From the NCBI GenBank assembly GCA_001600815.1, contig BCKZ01000002.1:434001-498000 (forward strand): 64,000 bases of DNA. The letters are read 5' to 3'. The DNA is from Alloascoidea hylecoeti (taxonomy: Eukaryota). Position numbers and translations under genes: made by a program. Shown piece after piece: positions 4,120-18,782 of this stretch (within the stretch, counting starts at the first letter, position 1; each line of letters starts with the position of its first letter). The notes beneath the pieces were generated by a model. The model saw only the letters and a program-made list of their open reading frames with translations, was not told the origin of the DNA and did not search any database.

Positions 4120-5460
4120 ATGAAATTTCTTAATCCATACATTTTCTTCATATCCGTTTTGTCAATATCGACTACAAAGGCAACTCCTTATTGGAAGGAA
4201 GACAAATACTGTGATTTTAACTACAACCAAGGTCTTATATCTCTTCCACTTTTCGCTGATACTCCCCCTTCATTCAGTGATCCTTTGGAGTATAATTTAG
4301 TCCCTTATACTGGATTCAAAGTCTTTCATATTTTTAATAATGGCCTCAGAATTGGTTATAATAAAGGTATAAAGCTGGTGCATTGTACTTTGGGAGAAGT
4401 TGATAAAGAGGAAATGATAGCTACGGAGTACTTTGATCCTGTACCTTGGAACAAGCCCATATTTGTTTATCAACCTGGAAAAAATCTGAATTCTTTTTAT
4501 GATTTATTTGCAAAATTGTTTACAAAGGAAAGATATAATATTGACTTTAATAGAGATGTTAGAAGAGTTATCAAAGCAAAACTTGAAGAAAAAACTGTTT
4601 CATCAAGAATACTCTATGAGAGTTCTCTAAAGGATAAGACTTTTGATTTAAACGATTTTATGAAAGATTTCACCAAAATTAAAATGGTACGGAGGAAAAA
4701 ATTTTTAAAAAGAAAGTTACCTATTTTCCTTCCTCATCAATGGGTTGGAGGATTGTTTGAATGCCCAAAACCAACTCAAGAATATCTTTCAACTATTCCT
4801 CCAATTGCTGAAGATGCGATCAAATATCTTAATGATTATCCTTGTCCAAATGAATTGGCTATTCCTTTAAGACCTCTCATTGCAGATAATATGTTTACAT
4901 TTGAAGAAGTTAGTTATCCCAATGATCATATTCTAGATATGGAAATTATTTCAGCAGCGCCTCTTCTATACACTCCTGATCCTTCAATAGATTTACGTTT
5001 CCGAGAATTAACTAGAAAACATTGGGCAAAACAATTAGATATCAATGAAAATTATAATTTTACAAAAGAAGATGATACAATCTTTGAAAAATATAACAAT
5101 GAATTATTTAAGTTTATTCAATTTATAATTCCAGAAATTAATTATGAATTATTATTTAAAATGATTAATTTGGAGTTTGAAAATTTTAAGAGCTTGTTTA
5201 AAAAATTTAATCATAATTATAAAATTAATGATCATGAACTTCAGTCAAAATTATTAAACTTTACCAAAAAAGAATTCAAAATCCTTTCAGGAATTCCCGA
5301 ATCTGAACTTGACTATAAACATGACTACAACAATGCCAATTATATTGATTTAGAACCCTCGGTAACTATGATTGATGAAGCCAAACAAAATATTAAAAAA
5401 TATATAGGACTTCGTAAGCAAAAGAAAGTACACAACCACAAGTCTGATCAAAAATTATAG
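4120..5460 (+). CDS. Hypothetical secreted protein (orphan)
   Basis: 446-aa open frame with host-like codon use and an N-terminal signal-peptide-like segment (MKFLNPYIFFISVLSISTTKA); no family recognised. Confidence 0.7.
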   Translation: MKFLNPYIFFISVLSISTTKATPYWKEDKYCDFNYNQGLISLPLFADTPPSFSDPLEYNLVPYTGFKVFHIFNNGLRIGYNKGIKLVHCTLGEVDKEEMIATEYFDPVPWNKPIFVYQPGKNLNSFYDLFAKLFTKERYNIDFNRDVRRVIKAKLEEKTVSSRILYESSLKDKTFDLNDFMKDFTKIKMVRRKKFLKRKLPIFLPHQWVGGLFECPKPTQEYLSTIPPIAEDAIKYLNDYPCPNELAIPLRPLIADNMFTFEEVSYPNDHILDMEIISAAPLLYTPDPSIDLRFRELTRKHWAKQLDINENYNFTKEDDTIFEKYNNELFKFIQFIIPEINYELLFKMINLEFENFKSLFKKFNHNYKINDHELQSKLLNFTKKEFKILSGIPESELDYKHDYNNANYIDLEPSVTMIDEAKQNIKKYIGLRKQKKVHNHKSDQKL

Positions 5461-8720: not shown

Positions 8721-11336
8721 TTAAAGAACAACTTGTAAAAAATCATCAAGACCATTAACATCATTATCTAAAGCATTATCATAATTCATTAACATTACAT
8801 TTAAAACATGATGAATTTGTAACCATGATAAATGAATAAATCTAATAAAACATTTACTAATTTGTTTATTTAAATTTGTTAAATTTTCAAAAGTTGATAA
8901 ATTATCAATATCAACATTATTATTATTTATAATAATATCGGAAGTTGATGATGTTGAGGTTATAAAATCAATATTATTTGGAATATCATTAATAATATTT
9001 TTTAAGTTTAAATCATTCATAATATTATTATTAATTAAATCAATTGTAAAAATATCTTGTTTTTCAATAAGATATGGAGTAGTTGTTTCTAAATTTGAAT
9101 TGTTAATCAAAGAATTAATTGTTGAACAAGCTGTTGTTGATGAAGTATTTAAATCATAAATTAATTTAAAACCAAATATAATTGAAATTAATTTAATACT
9201 AAAATAAAATTTCTTTTTTATTTTTGTTAAATTTAATGGATCAATTCTATCAATTGAAGAATGATTTAATTCTTGAGTTAATTTTTTACGATTATAATGA
9301 TTTTGATTTTGATTTTGATTTTGATTTTGATTTTGATTTTGATTTTGATTTTGATTTTGATTATGAATATGATTATGAATATGATTATGAATATGATGAT
9401 TATGATGAGTATGAGTATGATTATGATTTAAATTATTAATATTTTCTGGTAAATTATTTGATTTTGAATTATAATGTTTATCAAGTGTTTGTGAAAATTT
9501 AGCAAAACAAGATTGTGCAAACTTTCTTTCTTGTTGTAATGTTAATTCATTACAAGATGATAATAATCTTGTTGGAGTAATTGATACGTTTAAAAATTCA
9601 TCAACATTATTATCTTTCAATGGTGAAGTTGATGATGATGATGATAATAATTGTTCTTTTCTCCAATTAATTAATTTTTCACAAACACTTTTCTTTAATA
9701 AATAAATACCAAAATCTGAAAATAATAATGAAGATAATTGTAATAAATCTTCATTTTTAATTAAATTAATTAACTGAGATTTATAATTTGAATTCAATAA
9801 ATCATTATTATTAATTATATCAAATGATGATGAATCAGAATTTAAAGATAATATAGATGAATCTAATGATGATGTAGAAGAAGCATCTTTTGAAATTAAA
9901 TGACCAACGTTTGAAATTGCAAAAGGTAATTGATTATCATTTTTATTTAAATTTAAATTTAAATTTAAAAATGATGAACTATCATCCCAATTAAAAAATT
10001 GAATATCAAATTGTTTAAATTTTTTTAAAAAAATTTTTTTTAAGCCATTAATATTATTATTATATTGATGATCAATTAAATCACATTTTGAAATAATTGG
10101 AATTAAAGGTAAATAAATTGATAATTTTTTTAAATCTTTTAAAATATCATTTGTTAAAAGATTAATATTTGGATCTAATAAATAAAAACAACAATCTATA
10201 TAATTTAATCCTTGATTTGAAGTAATTAAATGATTTGTAAAACTTGAAGAATTAAAATTAATTAATTGTGTTATATTTTGATAATTATCTTCAATTAAAG
10301 AAGATGATATATTTTTGATTGATGTTAAAGAAGTATTAATATTTATAAAATGAATATTATAATCAAGATCTTGTTGTTCTAAAGAGGCGGTTTCTTCAAA
10401 GTTTGGGAAATTAATTGTTGAGTTATGAAACAATGGTTTTGTTGAGCAACGAATTGATTTATTTTTAATTTTTTCATCAATATCATGATCATGATCATTT
10501 GTTGTTTCAACATCAACGATATGATTACAATTTTTTATAATTGATTGAATAAAATGGGATTTTCCAACATTTTCCGAACCAAGGACTAATATATTCAAAT
10601 TAGGTAATCTTAAACCAATATCAGTAAATTGGCGTTTTGAAGGCAGAGAAAGTCGTGGCATTATTAAGGTTGGCAAAGAAGCATCTTGAGTATTAGTGTT
10701 AGTGTTTGAGCCTAGATGTAGATTCAATGAGTCAATATCGATATTGATATCATGAAAAGAAGGTGAGATTGAACGGGATCTTGAAGAAATAATATCCTGA
10801 TCGTCATCCATTTGGTCATCCATTTGTACAGACAAATCATCATCCAAAAGCCAGCTGGATTCGCAAAAGGGAGAGGTAATTTCGTCAGTGATGTCCGATA
10901 AGATAGGGGTAGACATGGATACCGCCGAACACCCCTCCTGTTCTGAGGGTGCCCTGGAGCGAGGCGAAAGAGGGGCCGCGGGGGCCGCGGGGGGACGCGA
11001 GGAAGACGAGGAATGGACCACCTGCAGGGTATCCAGATCGGGGTTGTTCAGCAACTGCAGGATGGAAGAGTGAGGGTTGAACAGGGCATTGCGCGATTTG
11101 GCCGATATGGTGTGCGCAGATTCCGCAGAAACAGGCGCAGTTTGCGTGTGGAGGCAGTCGAGGTCGCGGGGTGCGTGGGCGTGGGCGTGCGACGAGGGCG
11201 ACGAGGGCGACCCGGACGGGTCACTGCTGGAAACCACGAAATGGAAGTTGGAGGCAGCCATTTGCATTCGATGCTGTGGAAGAGAACAGAACAGAACTTT
11301 GAAGTACCCCTCCTGCGCACGTGATGTTATCGCCAT
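8721..11336 (-). CDS. Septin-like P-loop GTPase-domain protein with C-terminal hydrophobic anchor; start may be 11267 or 11261
   Basis: LIMPRLSLPSKRQFT, NILVLGSENVGKS (G1), IDCCFYLL, LIPIISKCD (septin-type G4), PFAIS, DPLNL followed by hydrophobic FYFSIKLISIIFGFKLIY. Confidence 0.75.
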   Translation of the reverse strand: MAITSRAQEGYFKVLFCSLPQHRMQMAASNFHFVVSSSDPSGSPSSPSSHAHAHAPRDLDCLHTQTAPVSAESAHTISAKSRNALFNPHSSILQLLNNPDLDTLQVVHSSSSSRPPAAPAAPLSPRSRAPSEQEGCSAVSMSTPILSDITDEITSPFCESSWLLDDDLSVQMDDQMDDDQDIISSRSRSISPSFHDINIDIDSLNLHLGSNTNTNTQDASLPTLIMPRLSLPSKRQFTDIGLRLPNLNILVLGSENVGKSHFIQSIIKNCNHIVDVETTNDHDHDIDEKIKNKSIRCSTKPLFHNSTINFPNFEETASLEQQDLDYNIHFININTSLTSIKNISSSLIEDNYQNITQLINFNSSSFTNHLITSNQGLNYIDCCFYLLDPNINLLTNDILKDLKKLSIYLPLIPIISKCDLIDHQYNNNINGLKKIFLKKFKQFDIQFFNWDDSSSFLNLNLNLNKNDNQLPFAISNVGHLISKDASSTSSLDSSILSLNSDSSSFDIINNNDLLNSNYKSQLINLIKNEDLLQLSSLLFSDFGIYLLKKSVCEKLINWRKEQLLSSSSSTSPLKDNNVDEFLNVSITPTRLLSSCNELTLQQERKFAQSCFAKFSQTLDKHYNSKSNNLPENINNLNHNHTHTHHNHHIHNHIHNHIHNQNQNQNQNQNQNQNQNQNQNHYNRKKLTQELNHSSIDRIDPLNLTKIKKKFYFSIKLISIIFGFKLIYDLNTSSTTACSTINSLINNSNLETTTPYLIEKQDIFTIDLINNNIMNDLNLKNIINDIPNNIDFITSTSSTSDIIINNNNVDIDNLSTFENLTNLNKQISKCFIRFIHLSWLQIHHVLNVMLMNYDNALDNDVNGLDDFLQVVL
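9295..9428. repeat. Coding hexanucleotide microsatellites (GATTTT)n and (TATGAA/TATGAT)n encoding (NQ)n and His-rich tracts
   Basis: About 10 tandem GATTTT units followed by TATGAT/TATGAA units, visible directly. Confidence 0.95.
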
Positions 11337-11375
11337 CAGAAGATAGCACCTTACCCGGCCAGAGATAGCAGGCAG

Positions 11376-13757
11376 TCACTCGGAATCCGACGGTATCGAA
11401 ATGACTTCGGCCGAACCCACTTTGGCCGAACCCACTTTGGCCTCGACTTCCGAATCGCTCTCGTCCCAATTGTCCTCCAAAATCGAATTCATCAGGTAGT
11501 CATGTCGGCGATTAGCTTTCATTTTTATTATTGAGGGATCCGGAGATCCATGCAGGGTCAACGGTATCACTTTTCTCGGGTTTATGTGATATTTTTCCGG
11601 AGAGCTAGTTAATTCTCTGGTTTGCCCCTTTTTGGGTGTTATGAAAGGACTGATAATCCTGTCCGGCGGAGGTGTTTCCCGAGAAAGAGAATCGTTTATT
11701 ATCCGGAGTTTGGGCGATTTGGGTGGATCCATTAGTTTAATAGTTGTAACTTTACGCGATGCAAAATATGAAGTTATTGTTGTTTGTCCTGGTGCTAATT
11801 TCTTGCTTCTCGTTCTCGTTCTCGTTTTCGTTTTCGTGTTCGCTTTCGCCTTTAACTGTAATCTCCAATATTCTACTAAATCAGGATTTAATACTTCCAT
11901 GACAGAAACTGGTATAAATTCTTCTAATTTAGATATCTTTTTACTTTCTTTTTCAATCTTTTCATAATAACTTTGAATTTCATCATCAATTGTTTTTATT
12001 TTTGTTTCTCTTCCTCTTTCGGATTTGCTTTTCCTATTATAACTTTGATTTATCACTTTACCATTGATAAAATCTTCAATTGTTTCAACCTTTTCATTTG
12101 GTAAATAATCTTTCATTAATAAATCTGTATTTATAATTGTTTTAAAAACTGAATATTTTAATCCATATATTATTTTATCTTTAATTTCGGATTTAATTTC
12201 AATTAATTTTGATAAATATGGATCTTTTGGAATTGTTTGATTTTTTAATATATTTAATAAATAAATTAATGAAAAATGTTTTTGAAAATATAATCCAATT
12301 GGTAAATTCCTACCAAAATATTGATTTTTTTGAAAAAATTCGGCTAATAATGTTAATTTTAAATTATCAATTGTGTGTGTATTTGTTGTTGATGTAATTG
12401 AATTTGTATTACTTAAACTATATTTCCATTTTTCTTTAAAATCTAAAATTTTATCATTATTTGATATAGATGGTTTTAAATATTTCATAATTATTGAATC
12501 TGATGGGAAATCATCAATTAAATTAATATTTGATACTTTTTTACCAAATATTAATTTATTTTTTGAATAATCTTTTAAATAATTATTTATTTTAAATTTC
12601 CAATTTAATAATTCATTTTCTCTTTTTATTTTATCATCATTATCATTAATATTATTTGAAGAAATATTTGCAATTGAATAAATTTTTTCAAATTCTTTAC
12701 ATATATTAATATTATCATTTTCATTTTTATATAATGATAATTTAACTGATCTAATAATTGATAAATTTAAAACTCCTGAATGATAATCACCACCAATAAA
12801 TAGACAAATTAATAAAAAATGAAATTTATTAATTTCTTCATCTTCATCTTCATCTTCATTTTTATTTAAATGATACTTTTCTTGGAAATATTTTGAAATA
12901 TTTTGAAAATTTATTGGTGTTACCCAATTATTTGTTGGATCCTTTTTTAAAAAACTATCTTCATTATTCGAATTTAAATTTGAATTATTATTTTCAAAAT
13001 CTTCAAAATCTTCAAAATCTTTACTTTTTTTTAGTTTTTTGGAAATTGTTGCACTTGATGGTCTATCATAAATAAAATGTGAATAATTTTTTAAAATCTT
13101 ATCACCGCCAAACATTAAAACATCAGAATCATTTGTCAATATAAAATCACAAATTTTTAAATTTAATAAATTAACACATTCTGCTTCTGCTTCACCTTCT
13201 GCTTCAAAATATTCAATACCTAATATTTTTAAAATTTCTTTAACTTGTTGAATATCTTTATTAAATTTATAATCTAATCGTTTTATTTTATCTTTATTAT
13301 TATTGCTAATATTAGGTTTTGTTTTTAAATCAAATTGTCTTTTTTCCCATGGTTTATCAATACCATCAAAAACTAATATAAATCCAATATTTAATGATAA
13401 TAAATTTTTAATTCTTTGAAATATGATTTGATAAGTATGCATTTTCCAATTATTATTATTTGATGACATTTGTCCTTCAAAAAGCCACATAAAAGCATCG
13501 ATTGCTATTATCATTGATCGAGAATGTTTTGAATGGAATTCCGATGAAAGAATTGGTAATGCTTTGATTTGATAATGGTTAATATCTAAGATTAGTTATA
13601 ATGTTTATGTTTATGTTTATTAGGGAGTAAAGATGACTTACGGATTCTTGGTTCATTTGCTTCAGAAACAACATCCCAAAGACTATTAAACATATAAGTT
13701 TGTATTTAACCCATATAAAGTAAATTTTAATAAAGAAACATACTGTGAAATTCCCAT
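11376..13757 (-). CDS. YEN1: XPG/Rad2-family Holliday junction resolvase Yen1/Gen1; spliced: exons 13757-13744, 13682-13642, 13561-11376 (746 aa)
   Basis: Introns GTATGT..TAG (13743-13683) and GTAAGT..AAG (13641-13562) restore MGISHLWDVVSEANEPRIPLP...IAIDAFMWLFE. XPG motifs LVFDG, GEAEAEC, TNDSDVLMFG and GGDYHSGV are present. Confidence 0.88.
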
Positions 13758-13933: not shown

Positions 13934-14530
13934 ATGAGTATCCCCAAAACATCCCATACACTATATCCCAAACGATGGCTTTTATCAACAGGTGTCCCAA
14001 ATAGTGTTTGTAACGATAAACGACGTTTTCAAAATTATAAACCATTAAAACCGAATCAAACTCCAAAATTAGTTGATGCATTTGGTGGTATTGTCCCAAT
14101 ACTTGGTATAGGTGATGTTTTAATAAAAATTTATAATTCTTATAATGAATCTTTGGAAATTTTAGTCAAAGGTGTCTTTCATATAATTGGACAAGAAAAT
14201 ATATTACAATTACATTATTTATTAAGTAAAGGTGTTGGTTTTAAATATTCAAATGATCCAAATTCATCTACAAATAAAAATTCTAATGGAAATGGTAATG
14301 ATACAAAAGGAAATGATATGGCAATGTTATTTTCAATGAATGGTTATAATTTTTTATCAGTTCCACCAAATCCTAAAAATAAATTATTTTATTTTTATGA
14401 AGAAGGTTGTGATTTTTATGATAATATACCTGAAGGAGTTCATCAGATAAATACATTATTTATTGCTGATTCGGATCAAGATGGTGATGAGGATGATGAT
14501 CTATTTTCTTTTAATGAAACAGAAAATTAA
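13934..14530 (+). CDS. Stand-alone Ty1/copia protease-like (Pol beta-barrel) protein with catalytic Asp replaced (STG)
   Basis: WLLSTGVPNSVCNDKRRF..YKPL...VDAFGGIVPILGIGDV...LVKGVFHI.G.ENIL matches the copia protease pattern WxLD(S/T)GAxxHxCxDxxxF...GxGxV...LxxVxxVPxxxxNLxS; intact 198-aa ORF. Confidence 0.7.
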   Translation: MSIPKTSHTLYPKRWLLSTGVPNSVCNDKRRFQNYKPLKPNQTPKLVDAFGGIVPILGIGDVLIKIYNSYNESLEILVKGVFHIIGQENILQLHYLLSKGVGFKYSNDPNSSTNKNSNGNGNDTKGNDMAMLFSMNGYNFLSVPPNPKNKLFYFYEEGCDFYDNIPEGVHQINTLFIADSDQDGDEDDDLFSFNETEN

Positions 14531-14608: not shown

Positions 14609-16081
14609 TTATTTCAGAAATAATAAATAATCTTTAGGATCATAATCTTCATTAGATAGCAAATTAAAACACTCGATAAAATAATTTACTAATGATAACA
14701 AAGTAAATTCCATTGAATTTCTATTAACACCTTGTTGGTCGTTTATCTCAATTTGATCTTTATTTAAATCATGATTAATTAAATCAGTCCATTTTAAAAA
14801 ATTCGTTTCAATTCTTTTAATTTTTAAATTTAAATCATCATTTAAATTTTCAAATTGAATAATTGGTATATTAATTTGAATTTTATCATTAATCTCATTA
14901 TCAATTATTAATCTAATAATTAATTCTTGTAATTGATTAGATATTAATAAATTATTTTGAAATAGATTTGTTTGTAATTGAATATTATTATGTAAATCTT
15001 CTTGTTCTTCATCTATACTAGTATCTGGGGTTGTTGAGGATGATGATGGAATGATATTACATCTGATTGAATAGATTGTTTTTTCATCTGTTTTTTCATA
15101 AATTGATATTGTTTCTCCAAGGTGATGTTCAAGAGATTTCATTTCATTAATAAGTTCTTGATCGATGTGATTCTTTTTCTTTTTCTGTTTATTTTTAGCT
15201 TTGGTTTTGGGTTTCGATATATTTGAATCATTAGTTTTATTACTATTATTAGATTTATTAACTGATGGTGAAAATTTATCAGTTGATGTTGATGCAGATT
15301 TATCAGTTAATAATGAAGATCTATTATTTTTCAATTTAACAAATTTTATCGTTTCTCTTTTCTCCTCACTTAAAAATCTATCTAAATTATCATCTAATTT
15401 TTTCATCATTGTAATTAATCCATTACCTTTTCTTAATCTTCTTTTTAAAATTAATTCATTAACTTCTTTAACAATATCATTAAAACCAAAATCAATATTT
15501 AATGAATAACCTTTTGGTATATCATTATTTAATGTTGTTAATCTTACTAAATTATCATTATTTGAAGTACTTGTAGAAATATTTGAAATATTTTTTGGAA
15601 TTTTTGGATATGATGATGGTATAAATAAATTAAATTTCAATTTTGAAATATCATATGGGAAATCAGGATCAGATGGTGTTAATTCAAATAAAATTGATAG
15701 AACATCAGATTCTAAATTTATCGCATCTTGCATATGATCTTTAGATTCTATTAATTCATTTTTTAAATTTGTATAAGAAGTATAATTTATAATTTCATAT
15801 TCATTTATTTTTAATGGTTTTAAATGTTTAAAAAGTTTTGATAATTCTATTGTTCTTGCAGATAATTTTGGTTTATTTTGGTTTTGTGTTTGCGTTTCTT
15901 TGTTTTTACTTTCATTTTCATTTTTATGTTCATTTGTATTTGTATTTGTATTTGTATTTGTATTTTTATTTCTATTTTTATTTTTATTTTTATTTCTATA
16001 CCTTTTATTAGATTTATTTGACAGTTGGGGTTCTGTAGTAGTAGACATATTTGATGGTGTGTAAATGGTGATGGAACACAA
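14609..16081 (-). CDS. Conserved fungal hypothetical protein with PSDPDFP (RWD-like) motif; likely start 16048
   Basis: 490-aa ORF; FELTPSDPDFPYDISKLKFNLFIPSSYP...NDIPKGYSLNIDFGF...LDDNLDRFLSEEKRETIKFV recalls a fungal RWD-like family. Confidence 0.65.
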   Translation of the reverse strand: MCSITIYTPSNMSTTTEPQLSNKSNKRYRNKNKNKNRNKNTNTNTNTNTNEHKNENESKNKETQTQNQNKPKLSARTIELSKLFKHLKPLKINEYEIINYTSYTNLKNELIESKDHMQDAINLESDVLSILFELTPSDPDFPYDISKLKFNLFIPSSYPKIPKNISNISTSTSNNDNLVRLTTLNNDIPKGYSLNIDFGFNDIVKEVNELILKRRLRKGNGLITMMKKLDDNLDRFLSEEKRETIKFVKLKNNRSSLLTDKSASTSTDKFSPSVNKSNNSNKTNDSNISKPKTKAKNKQKKKKNHIDQELINEMKSLEHHLGETISIYEKTDEKTIYSIRCNIIPSSSSTTPDTSIDEEQEDLHNNIQLQTNLFQNNLLISNQLQELIIRLIIDNEINDKIQINIPIIQFENLNDDLNLKIKRIETNFLKWTDLINHDLNKDQIEINDQQGVNRNSMEFTLLSLVNYFIECFNLLSNEDYDPKDYLLFLK

Positions 16082-16127: not shown

Positions 16128-16637
16128 TCACGACTCATTTTTACTCATATCCCCCATCTTTTTAACGTTTATCAATAGTTTTCTCATCTCCAAAATCTCG
16201 TCATTTTCCTGCTTATCAGACTCATTTACATTTTCAGCTAAATTTCTATATTTTCTTTTTTTCTTCTTTTCACTACTAGATTTTTTTTCATGCTTTAATT
16301 GTTTAATTATACCTAATCTACTATTTTCAGGATCATTCAATTCTTGTAATTTCATTGCTAAGATTGATCTCGCATGTTTTCTGTTTTGATCTCTCGACCG
16401 GGTCGCCTGTGACGATACAACGATTCCTGTGGGTAAATGGGTTAATTGTACTTTACTGTTTGTTTTATTGATCTTTTGTCCTCCCTTACCACCGCCTTTT
16501 ATGAAGACTTCAGTGATTTCATCTTCATTTATTTTGGGTCGTGGAGGTAACGGATTTTTCAACAGGATTGGATTTGTGTGGAAAAGGGATTTCAGGCTAA
16601 TTATTGGTATTTTGAGTATTTTTGTGGGTTGTAGCAT
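16128..16637 (-). CDS. RSO55: Mitochondrial codon-independent peptide release factor homolog (C12orf65/MTRFR, yeast Rso55/Pth3)
   Basis: Presequence-like N-terminus, LPPRPKI.E.EI.E.FIKGGGKGGQKINKTNSKVQLTHLPTGIVV..QATRSRDQNR, basic C-tail. Confidence 0.88.
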   Translation of the reverse strand: MLQPTKILKIPIISLKSLFHTNPILLKNPLPPRPKINEDEITEVFIKGGGKGGQKINKTNSKVQLTHLPTGIVVSSQATRSRDQNRKHARSILAMKLQELNDPENSRLGIIKQLKHEKKSSSEKKKKRKYRNLAENVNESDKQENDEILEMRKLLINVKKMGDMSKNES

Positions 16638-16869
16638 TTGTGGGTTGTGTTTAATTTAGTTTACAATGATATTTACGATGATTACGATGGATCAACAATG
16701 AAAGAAATTTAAGGTCGCGAACAAGGTTTCCGGATAAGGTTTCCGAACCCGTCCGAAAAGCCCCAAACTGAGTAATTCTGCAGCTGTGATGCGTAAAAGA
16801 CGCAGCGAAACAGCTCAAGAAATCGACGATCTCCTGCTTTTCCCGACCAAAACGTCGAAAAAACCGCAA

Positions 16870-17045
16870 TCTCGAGACTCGGTCATCCGTACACCCTACC
16901 CACGCCCACGGCGCCTGATTGGCTGGATCGGGCTTCCGTCTCCTCCCGCGTGGTGTCCCGCATAAACCCGGGGCTGGATTACATAACACACACATATACC
17001 CCACAAATCTGGAAAAGTCTTCAGACTCCTTCAGAGTATAAATAA
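16870..17045 (+). promoter_or_regulatory. PCK1 promoter: Mig1/CreA sites, CCAAT box, CSRE-like element, TATA
   Basis: ATAAACCCGGGG 16962-16973 fits the Mig1 consensus WWWWWN-SYGGGG; CCCCAC 16999-17004; CTGATTGGCT 16915-16924; CTCGGTCATCCG 16878-16889 (10/12 to YCCRTTNRNCCG); TATAAATA 17037-17044. Confidence 0.55.
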
Positions 17046-17120
17046 ACAGCAATTTCTCTTTTCCTTTTTCTCCCATTCTCTTTGTCAATTGTCTTTTGTC
17101 ATTTATAGAACTATTCAATC

Positions 17121-18782
17121 ATGGCTCCTGCTGTTAACATTACTAAACTCCACCCACAAGGTGTTGAACCTCAATCCGAAGTCGAAGAGACTTTGTACAG
17201 AAGTGCCCACATCGACTACTCAAAAGTTCACATCACCCATAATCCTTCTGTTCCTCAATTATATGAAGATGCTTTGGTCCACGAACATGGCTCTGCTATC
17301 AACTCAACTGGTGCTTTAGTCGCCTCTTCTGGTGCTAAGACTGGTCGTTCTCCAAAGGACAAGCGTGTTGTTGATGAGCCTTCATCTGCAAAGCACGTTT
17401 GGTGGGGACCTGTCAATACAAAACTTTCTCCACAAGCTTGGGAAATCAACAGAGAACGTGCTATTGACTACTTAAACACAAAAGATAGAATTTACGTTGT
17501 TGATGCCTTTGCTGGTTGGGATCCTAAATATAGATTAAAGGTTAGAGTTGTCTGCGCAAGAGCTTACCATGCTTTATTTATGAGAAATATGTTGATTCGT
17601 CCAACCGCTGAAGAATTGGCTAATTTTGGTAAACCAGATTTCGTCATTTACAACGGTGGTGGTTTCCCTGCAAACAGATTCACAACTGGTATGACTTCTT
17701 CTACCAGTGTTGATATCAATTTCGCTGCTATGGAAATGGTTATCTTAGGTACTGAATATGCTGGTGAAATGAAGAAAGGTATCTTGACCGTTATGTTTTA
17801 CTTACAACCTGTTGTTTATAACAATTTAACTTTACACTCTTCTGCAAATGAAGGTGAAAATGGTGATGTCACTTTATTCTTCGGTTTATCTGGTACTGGT
17901 AAAACTACTTTATCTGCTGATCCACATAGATATTTGATCGGTGATGATGAACATGTCTGGACTAGTGAAGGTGTTTTCAACATTGAAGGTGGTTGTTACG
18001 CTAAATGTTTAGATTTATCTGGTGAAAAGGAACCTGATATTTTCAATGCTATTAAATTTGGTTCCGTCTTAGAAAACGTTGTTTTTGACCCATCCACAAG
18101 AGAAGTCGACTATGAAGATTCTACTTTAACTGAAAACACAAGAGTTTCTTACCCAATTGAATACATTCCAAATGCTAAGATCCCATGTTTCTCAAACCAT
18201 CACCCAACAAATATTATCTTATTGACTTGTGATGCTCGTGGTGTCTTACCTCCAATTTCAAGATTAACTCCTGAACAAGTTATGTATCAATTCATTTCTG
18301 GTTATACTTCAAAGATGGCTGGTACTGAAGAAGGTGTCACTGAACCAGAAGCTACTTTCTCCGCATGTTTCGGTCAACCATTCTTAGTCTTACATCCTAT
18401 TAAATATGCTCAATTATTAGCTGAAAAAATGAAGGAACATAAATCAAATGCCTGGTTGTTAAACACTGGTTGGACCGGTCAATCTGTTGCCAATGGTGGT
18501 AAGAGATGTCCATTGAAATACACTCGTGCTATTTTAGATTCTATTCACTCTGGTGAATTAGCCAAAGCAACTTTTGAAAACTTTGATGTTTTCAACTTTG
18601 CTATCCCAACAACTATCCCTGGTTCAACTGTTCCAAGAAATATCTTAAATCCAAAAATTGGCTGGAAAGGTGATGATTTCAGTACTGAAGTTTCTAAATT
18701 GGGTCAATTATTTGCTGAAAACTTTGAAAACTACATTGATCAAGCAACTCCTGATGTTATTGCCGCTGGTCCTAAGTTTTAA
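17121..18782 (+). CDS. PCK1: Phosphoenolpyruvate carboxykinase (ATP)
   Basis: [53 protein letters not shown]; strong codon bias. Confidence 0.99.

Follow-up and report, generated by a model that had tools for sequence, protein, structure and literature searches.

Could Atg32, the best-studied mitophagy receptor, have originated from a GTPase? The question is raised by a gene of the budding yeast Alloascoidea hylecoeti, which we analyzed within a 64,000-nucleotide stretch of contig BCKZ01000002.1 (positions 434,001 to 498,000 of the forward strand; hereafter the window, with its first letter as position 1). The gene lies on the reverse strand at 8721-11336 and consists of an uninterrupted reading frame of 871 codons without frameshift. 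An initial annotation of its sequence had described a septin-like GTPase with the motifs and layout of Atg32, possibly an ancestral GTPase-type form of this receptor. Our results argue for this view, namely a profile match, a second Atg32 motif, the colinear order of the parts, the long tail, the single gene copy and a fold compatible with a G domain, but as the match probabilities are moderate, they do not prove it. We consider it likely that the orthologue of Atg32 in this lineage is the encoded protein of 871 amino acids (aa) and that the Atg32 domain is a collapsed G domain.

Atg32 of Saccharomyces cerevisiae (Sc) consists of a cytosolic arm, one membrane segment (residues 389-411) and a tail in the intermembrane space (PMC9980689, PMC5792711, PMC3164466). 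The arm contains an Atg8-interacting motif (AIM) of the form (W/F/Y)xx(L/I/V), here WQAI (PMC5792711, PMC3164466), whose mutation leads to a partial defect, and phosphorylation of Ser114 by CK2 leads to the binding of Atg11 (PMC9980689, PMC5792711, PMC3164466). The folded domain is referred to as a pseudo-receiver in the title of PDB entry 5wlp. A homologue has been described in Komagataella (PMC8700663), and two reviews state that filamentous ascomycetes lack a known homologue (PMC8226480, PMC7711908). Our literature search, which had most subscription papers outside its scope, found no work that connects Atg32 with septins or GTPases, nor any mention of DUF6780, a domain family discussed below.

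A protein with a septin fold and a predicted membrane anchor

The features of the gene and its product are, in window coordinates:

8721..11336, reverse strand: open reading frame (ORF), 871 aa counted from the first ATG
11217..11249, reverse strand: NFHFVVSSSDP (aa 30-40), family N-terminal motif xFF[LI]T..[DE]P, found in 11 of 17 yeast-type homologues examined
11049..11084, reverse strand: LFNPHSSILQLL (aa 85-96), match to the first N-terminal block of Atg32 (Sc aa 41-52), 18.8 bits
10881..10937, reverse strand: E.CS.......ILS followed by acidic residues (aa 134-152), candidate Atg11-binding site, 10.1 bits
10782..10808, reverse strand: DDDQDIISS (aa 177-185), second acidic I-I-S site, from the alignment
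10644..10673, reverse strand: PTLIMPRLSL (aa 222-231), MP block common to the family and Atg32 (Sc 201-210), E 0.013
10536..10598, reverse strand: strand b1, G1/P-loop GSENVGKS and helix a1 (aa 247-267), matching Atg32 217-234
9657..10601, reverse strand: septin-fold G domain (about aa 246-560), from Pfam PF00735 and an AlphaFold2 (AF2) model
10326..10349, reverse strand: degenerate G3 position, FININTSL in place of FVDTPG, from the alignment
10080..10091, reverse strand: G4, SKCD (aa 416-419), from the sequence
9297..9428, reverse strand: His/Asn/Gln low-complexity linker, a 6-base unit repeated 22 times
9210..9242, reverse strand: DPL and basic patch KIKKK (aa 699-709), from the alignment
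9150..9209, reverse strand: predicted single membrane segment (aa 710-729), from hydropathy
8724..9149, reverse strand: tail of 142 aa past the membrane segment, from its length

All motifs quoted in the initial annotation are present, i.e. FHFV (31-34), TPILSDITDE (143-152), TLIMPRLSL (223-231), LNILVLG (247-253), GSENVGKS (253-260) and SKCD (416-419), and the basic patch KIKKK (705-709), the hydrophobic segment (711-729) and the 142-aa tail follow one another as described there. The septin-like GTPase domain is likewise borne out by the Pfam model Septin (PF00735), which matches residues 246-485 at E 2.6e-9, above its cut-off. The closest sequences in the PDB are septins, at E 0.005 and weaker, and the AF2 model of the G domain (mean local confidence, pLDDT, 76.5) resembles septins with Z-scores of 17.7-20.5, with septin 7 at the top (Z 20.5, root-mean-square deviation 4.5, 238 aligned), as compared with Z 11.8 for the best non-septin GTPase.

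An exhaustive homologue search with residues 215-625 yielded 177 representatives at E <=0.001 (best 2.4e-18, about 30% identity), of which 150 were used for family-wide motif counts. The 23 proteins that were looked up include members from Sugiyamaella, Trichomonascus (two), Nadsonia, Wickerhamiella, Tortispora, five genera of Pezizomycotina and a Mucoromycota fungus (Calcarisporiella); in the databases, these are all entered as hypothetical or ‘Septin-type G domain’ proteins. A weak match to DUF6780 (PF20571), always below the cut-off, was obtained for eight of the ten family proteins scanned. The Pfam scan of the 871-aa protein did not detect this domain, and a DUF6780 search of its own genome gave no match, with the controls being likewise silent. 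The layout of the family is constant: xFF[LI]T, a Ser/acidic arm, the MP block, G1, AST[KR]P, RN.CFVD, G4, PxAVS, a final helix, DPL and one membrane segment. The DPL motif, for instance, is invariant in an alignment of 28 rows and occurs somewhere in 102 of 107 family rows. The 871-aa protein carries the MP block, G1, AST[KR]P, RN.CF, PxAVS, the final helix, DPL and the membrane segment in this order and, as judged from its sequence, is clearly a member of this Septin-type G/DUF6780 (hereafter Septin/DUF6780) fungal family. While it shares the whole layout and the invariant residues, it represents the most divergent branch sampled, with a lost G3, an Atg32 motif and a longer tail.

The GTPase motifs had been regarded as intact. 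This holds for G1 and G4, but G3 is lost, as the protein has FININTS where 96 of 107 family rows hold the G3 Asp; G1 is kept in 101 of these rows. A member of the Wickerhamiella cluster (P0139) combines a damaged G1 with a long branch, and G-motif decay may have occurred more than once in yeasts.

The 871-aa protein is not a canonical septin. Four patterns that we take to represent the septin motifs S2 and S4 and the residues of the septin-unique-element were found neither in this protein (0/4) nor in any of the 150 family members. These elements are named as septin motifs in PMC11238149. In a midpoint-rooted tree of 35 family rows and seven septins, with AspE-type (group 5) septins not included, the septins group together on one side of a 100/100 branch, while the 871-aa protein falls within the yeast clade on the longest branch (2.37) and next to another long one, which leaves its exact place unsure. 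Compared with canonical septins (Cdc3/10/11/12, Shs1 and human SEPT7), it has the same fold, including the long C-terminal helix, as well as G1 and G4, but it lacks G3 and the interface motifs represented by these patterns, has a membrane anchor in place of the coiled coil and belongs to a separate clade. Eleven other septin loci are found in the genome.

Other searches delineate the same surroundings. A profile of the family matched only septins and P-loop proteins in the PDB (best 60 of 169 matches), a 36-aa query had no match to PDB sequences, and word-index homologue searches returned no match with the core and two fish septins with the family alignment. The ESM Atlas matches comprise Septin, Septin/DUF6780 and one unnamed Basidiomycota cluster, with no Atg32 cluster among them. 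This Basidiomycota cluster (89 members, 663 aa, score 0.91, no Pfam assignment) resembles the family and may extend it. Within the family, a subclade (P0008, P0017, P0032, P0128, P0145) displays a further motif in the disordered arm, SNSTAFxxALG, and LGGxW occurs in 11 of 107 members, mostly at the C-terminus.

Sequence similarity to Atg32

For comparison, Atg32 sequences were collected in two ways. Scanning metagenome contigs for a short pattern yielded at least 119 loci, and the matches listed include three Atg32 loci, all from Saccharomycetaceae: L023 (the Torulaspora ATG32), L081 and L052, which encodes a protein of 529 aa beside a PAN6-like gene. L052 matches PDB 5wlp at E 4.5e-89, and with this identification, the motifs that the initial annotation had ascribed to Atg32 are present in a real Atg32. 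A search with the folded domain added 11 proteins, several of them named ATG32. The resulting alignment holds 10 sequences, all from Saccharomycetaceae and six from Saccharomyces, which were down-weighted. Against Pfam, the Atg32 sequences matched neither the septin model nor another informative family.

Profile-profile comparison was suggested at the outset as a check of the link. In hhalign, the MP block, strand b1 and helix a1 of Atg32 aligned with the family at a probability of 52% (E 1.4e-4) in one comparison and of 42% (E 2.6e-4) in the other. With trimmed profiles, the probabilities were 62% and 71%, at z 7.9 and 8.3 relative to 40 column shuffles, whereas control profiles of septins (8 rows), Ras (23) and receivers (86) reached z -0.8, 1.6 and -0.9. 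In this alignment, Atg32 is shorter by about nine residues ahead of b1 and by three in the P-loop.

A further similarity, which the initial annotation had not seen, resides in the arm. The conserved N-terminal Atg32 motif LLDPHLSVLELL has a counterpart, LFNPHSSILQLL, at residues 85-96 of the 871-aa protein. A pattern for this first block, the extent of which (Sc 41-52) was set from our Atg32 alignment, matches 11 of 12 Atg32s and the 871-aa protein, but none of the 150 family members. As HMMER profiles of such short blocks proved too blunt, we used position-specific matrices. The first-block matrix scores 18.8 bits at residue 85 (E about 4e-4 for the protein, as one of 12 blocks tried), compared to 11.1 bits for the best decoy among 173,973 positions in 508 ORFs of the same genome. 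This block is 137 residues away from the MP block in the 871-aa protein and 160 in Sc Atg32. Taken singly, the MP and b1 blocks reach E 0.013 and 0.003, and the second-best match of a1 is in register. Chained in order, the four N-terminal blocks score 53.9 bits, as opposed to 11.5 for the best decoy (n=153 own-genome ORFs) and 24.7 for the best family member (n=115); for eight chained blocks, the respective values are 68.1, 23.6 and 33.8 (same n), with 22.4 for the best of 300 shuffles. In a free colinear search, five of seven elements of the C-terminal half of Atg32 fell on the expected elements of the 28-row family profile, with a score of 29.1 for the family, 20.9 for septins, 22.5 for Ras and 4.9 for receivers.

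The two receptor motifs originally proposed for the arm fared less well. FHFV is not evidence of an AIM, because it lines up with the N-terminal family motif xFF[LI]T..[DE]P; both FHFV (31-34) and FHDI (194-197) fit the bare AIM consensus with weak scores. For the Atg11-binding motif seen in TPILS, the ILS residues alone are at chance level (11-column block E 0.1, best match elsewhere), but the spacing of E.CS.......ILS is that of Sc 101-114 and places Ser147 in register with Sc Ser114. This site scores 10.1 bits, with a decoy frequency of 4e-5 per position, a score that is equalled by an unrelated Ser-rich site at residue 484. We regard aa 134-152 as a candidate Atg11-binding site, which is suggestive only. 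Acidic-S-[IV]-[ISV]-S sites resembling the one at residues 177-185 occur in several yeast homologues, their significance not being established.

At the other end of the protein, the membrane segment is weak: its Kyte-Doolittle value of 1.39 (19-residue window), the maximum of the protein, falls into the range of four Atg32s (1.10-1.74), compared to a family median of 1.79. The tail of 142 aa compares with 96-116 aa in Atg32 (n=4) and a family median of 27.5 aa (n=106). In both respects, the sequence resembles Atg32.

The gene is single-copy in its genome. Sc and Torulaspora Atg32 queries matched nothing there, the studied gene included, in a search that was evidently insensitive, and a search with the MP-b1 block found the studied gene and one septin exon only. 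The genome also has Atg8 and two Atg11 genes. The two Atg11 paralogues (C38:16450, C2:1320740) are 62% identical in their C-termini. They are among many duplicated genes, which include pairs among receivers and Ras-family proteins and the 11 septin loci; the studied gene is single.

In sum, the 871-aa protein and Atg32 (Saccharomyces, Torulaspora, Zygosaccharomyces, Nakaseomyces; PDB 5wlp) share the order of parts, the LxxPHxS[VI]LxLL motif, the MP block, b1-a1, (I/V)LS followed by acidic residues, the basic patch, a weak single membrane segment, a long tail and the occurrence as one copy. They differ in the folded domain, which in the 871-aa protein is a complete septin fold of about 315 aa that contains G1 and G4 and in Atg32 comprises about 140 aa without P-loop; in that the 871-aa protein has no WQxI AIM at the homologous place; in that it retains the FFL-type N-terminal family motif and DPL, neither of which is found in Atg32; and in that the membrane and C-terminal sequences do not match.

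Structure comparison

Our model of Atg32 197-341 is of modest quality, with a pLDDT of 62 and Z 11.8 when compared with 5wlp, the solved structure of this domain. The 49 rows that follow 5wlp contain 25 chains with a G-domain fold, among which we count Fbx4 on the assumption that it has this fold, and 24 receivers, tied at Z 7.6-8.9. A Foldseek search with the model listed mostly G-alpha, Rac and flavodoxin next, none below E 0.01, and a repeated structural search gave the same kind of mixture. Septins are missing from the best 50 structural matches of the Atg32 model, which does not exclude a relationship. Without its antiparallel strand, a G domain has its strands in the same order as a receiver domain. 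Given the tie, the fold does not favor a receiver origin, while the sequence favors the Septin/DUF6780 family. Eleven chains were common to the matches of both models, and eight of them yield a first-strand offset of 30 residues (four directly, four assuming no gap). The same offset follows from the sequence (L247 = F217), and the ends of the last helices coincide. The common register of the two models indicates compatibility, not descent.

A possible origin of Atg32 from a septin-like GTPase

The explanation that we favor, with fair though limited confidence, is that an early-branching budding yeast has its Atg32 orthologue in this gene, which would represent a half-way state. Atg32 would then have arisen from a fungal family of septin-fold GTPases that are anchored in membranes, and its ‘pseudo-receiver’ would be the G domain of this family minus the P-loop residues and the switch region. 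In the case of the 871-aa protein, the anchor would be one weak helix with basic residues on its flanks, inserted into the mitochondrial outer membrane so that the tail lies inside. The Ser/acidic arm in the cytosol would be phosphorylated, with Ser147 corresponding to Sc Ser114, and would then recruit Atg11 and hence the autophagy machinery. The G domain, with G1 and G4 kept and G3 lost, would constitute a regulatory or scaffolding module, which may bind nucleotide, but probably hydrolyzes it poorly. We infer the localization, phosphorylation, Atg11 binding and role in mitophagy by homology and, taken together, give them slightly better than even chances; the same applies to the view that the protein is a working mitophagy receptor. 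Much more tentative is the wider idea that Atg32 should be seen as a degenerate GTPase of the septin-like type and not as a receiver-domain protein, and that the whole Septin/DUF6780 family, which is also found in filamentous ascomycetes, represents the ancestral mitochondrial autophagy receptor, originally nucleotide-switched, with the studied gene as a transitional form that has the arm motif and is losing its G motifs.

If true, this would explain the origin of the best-studied mitophagy receptor. The Atg32 domain would have to be re-read as a pseudo-GTPase, with the short loop past its first strand as the remnant of a P-loop, and attention would be drawn to the unstudied conserved motif at Sc 41-52. 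Moreover, the Septin/DUF6780 family would become a candidate receptor in moulds (Neurospora, Sordaria, Aspergillus nidulans) and Yarrowia-like yeasts. For this gap, the filamentous ascomycetes without known Atg32, SMAC_04227 has been proposed as the mitophagy receptor of Sordaria, based on motif filters and not on homology (PMC8226480). None of the 150 family proteins contains the four motifs listed for it, which does not decide what SMAC_04227 is. MoAti1 was considered as a relative and ruled out, as it is a SUN protein.

Several observations weigh against an orthology with Atg32. The hhalign probabilities are only 42-71% and rest on about 45 columns, the Atg32 profile matches the 871-aa protein alone at a probability of 11%, and the 10 Atg32 sequences come from one yeast family (effective number of sequences 2.2). 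A second match to the first motif, of 15.7 bits, lies out of register at residue 159, and in the tail (residue 834), the best match to the AIM block reaches 14.0 bits, likewise out of register; matches of 14-16 bits can therefore be due to chance. The AIM, ILS, b4, b5, later-helix, b6, membrane and C-terminal blocks of Atg32 did not reach significance, and the W-x-x-I AIM was not found at the homologous place, which reads LQVV (104-107). The C-terminal half of the Atg32 domain alone aligns with the family at z 0.1-1.2 in hhalign, as opposed to 3.0-3.8 with Ras, and its four blocks score 14.3 on the 871-aa sequence, which is equalled by four of 153 decoys. In the colinear search, Ras scored as high as z 3.2 with an incorrect register, indicating a lenient null, and the elements and blocks were picked by eye. 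The structural register would fit any first strand of such a fold, and the neighboring genes are unlike those of Sc ATG32.

These points bear on three other explanations. Of these, the best is still an unlikely one: the protein could be an Atg32 homologue that is not, or not yet, a mitophagy receptor, but an organelle-anchored septin-like G-domain dimer for membrane shaping, fission or contact sites, with the AIM and Atg11 site gained later in Saccharomycetaceae. The missing AIM and an ILS site that is no more than suggestive would fit such a protein, and the retention of G1 and the G3 Asp in most family rows speaks for an older role that depended on nucleotides; septins with a membrane anchor, and others at sites of mitochondrial scission, have been described (PMC11238149, PMC10690161). 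On the other hand, the 871-aa protein has the Atg32 arm motif that the family lacks, has lost G3 and possesses an Atg32-like tail. We deem it slightly less probable still that there is no common descent at all and that a divergent Septin/DUF6780 member resembles Atg32 by chance and because short motifs have converged on an alpha/beta fold that is common. The insignificant C-terminal half, the failure of Atg32 to match the Pfam septin model, the out-of-register matches and, inconclusively, the lack of septins among the best structural matches are in line with this; however, chance would have to account for four ordered blocks far above the best decoy and the best family member, and the control profiles fail to match the same Atg32 block. 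Finally, it is highly improbable that the protein serves another organelle, such as the ER or the peroxisome, as a receptor or is a true septin subunit with a membrane tether: one membrane segment and an acidic arm would suit any selective-autophagy receptor, and the fold is that of septins, but the four septin interface patterns are missing from the protein and its family, a long 100/100 branch separates it from canonical septins, the genome has 11 other septin loci, and the motif matches point specifically to Atg32.

Gene boundaries, codon usage and genomic neighborhood

The genome is AT-rich, has a size of 24.8 Mb and contains split septin genes. The first ATG of the studied gene lies 39 bases past the upstream stop. 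Family proteins start just ahead of the xFF[LI]T motif in the alignment, and since FHFV aligns with this motif, the true start is probably Met24 (11267) or Met26 (11261), as far as the sequence suggests. The reading of CTG matters here, because three leucines of LFNPHSSILQLL have CTG codons. Conserved Leu columns of septins, Ras proteins and receivers show that CTG stands for Leu in this genome, which rules out a reading of CUG as Ser.

A peak in GC content covers the first 500 bases of the gene. We take this GC-rich 5' end as native, because the GC content slopes smoothly into both the studied and the upstream gene; a chimeric 5' end was ruled out by the smooth slope at third codon positions (GC3), which is mirrored in the upstream gene. 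GC3 drops from about 0.85 to below 0.1 along the studied gene and climbs at the 3' end of the upstream one. Peaks of up to 59%, compared to 16-25% around them, are located at 10800-11600, 1-400 and 16400-17600, for which GC-biased gene conversion at promoters would be a fitting cause.

The neighbors of the studied gene are, according to Pfam, a glycosyltransferase 8, an XPG nuclease, RF-1 and PEPCK. The XPG-family nuclease (11376-13514, reverse strand) stops 39 bases ahead of the first ATG of the studied gene and may be Yen1/Gen1-like; its XPG_N match opens at model position 29, which suggests an upstream exon. Two ORFs of 446 aa (4120-5460, forward strand) and 479 aa (14609-16048, reverse strand) have no Pfam match. 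An ORF of 198 aa at 13934-14530 (forward strand) matches the Pol polyprotein beta-barrel (PF22936) at E 6e-7 and is perhaps the relic of a retroelement or a domesticated piece of one.

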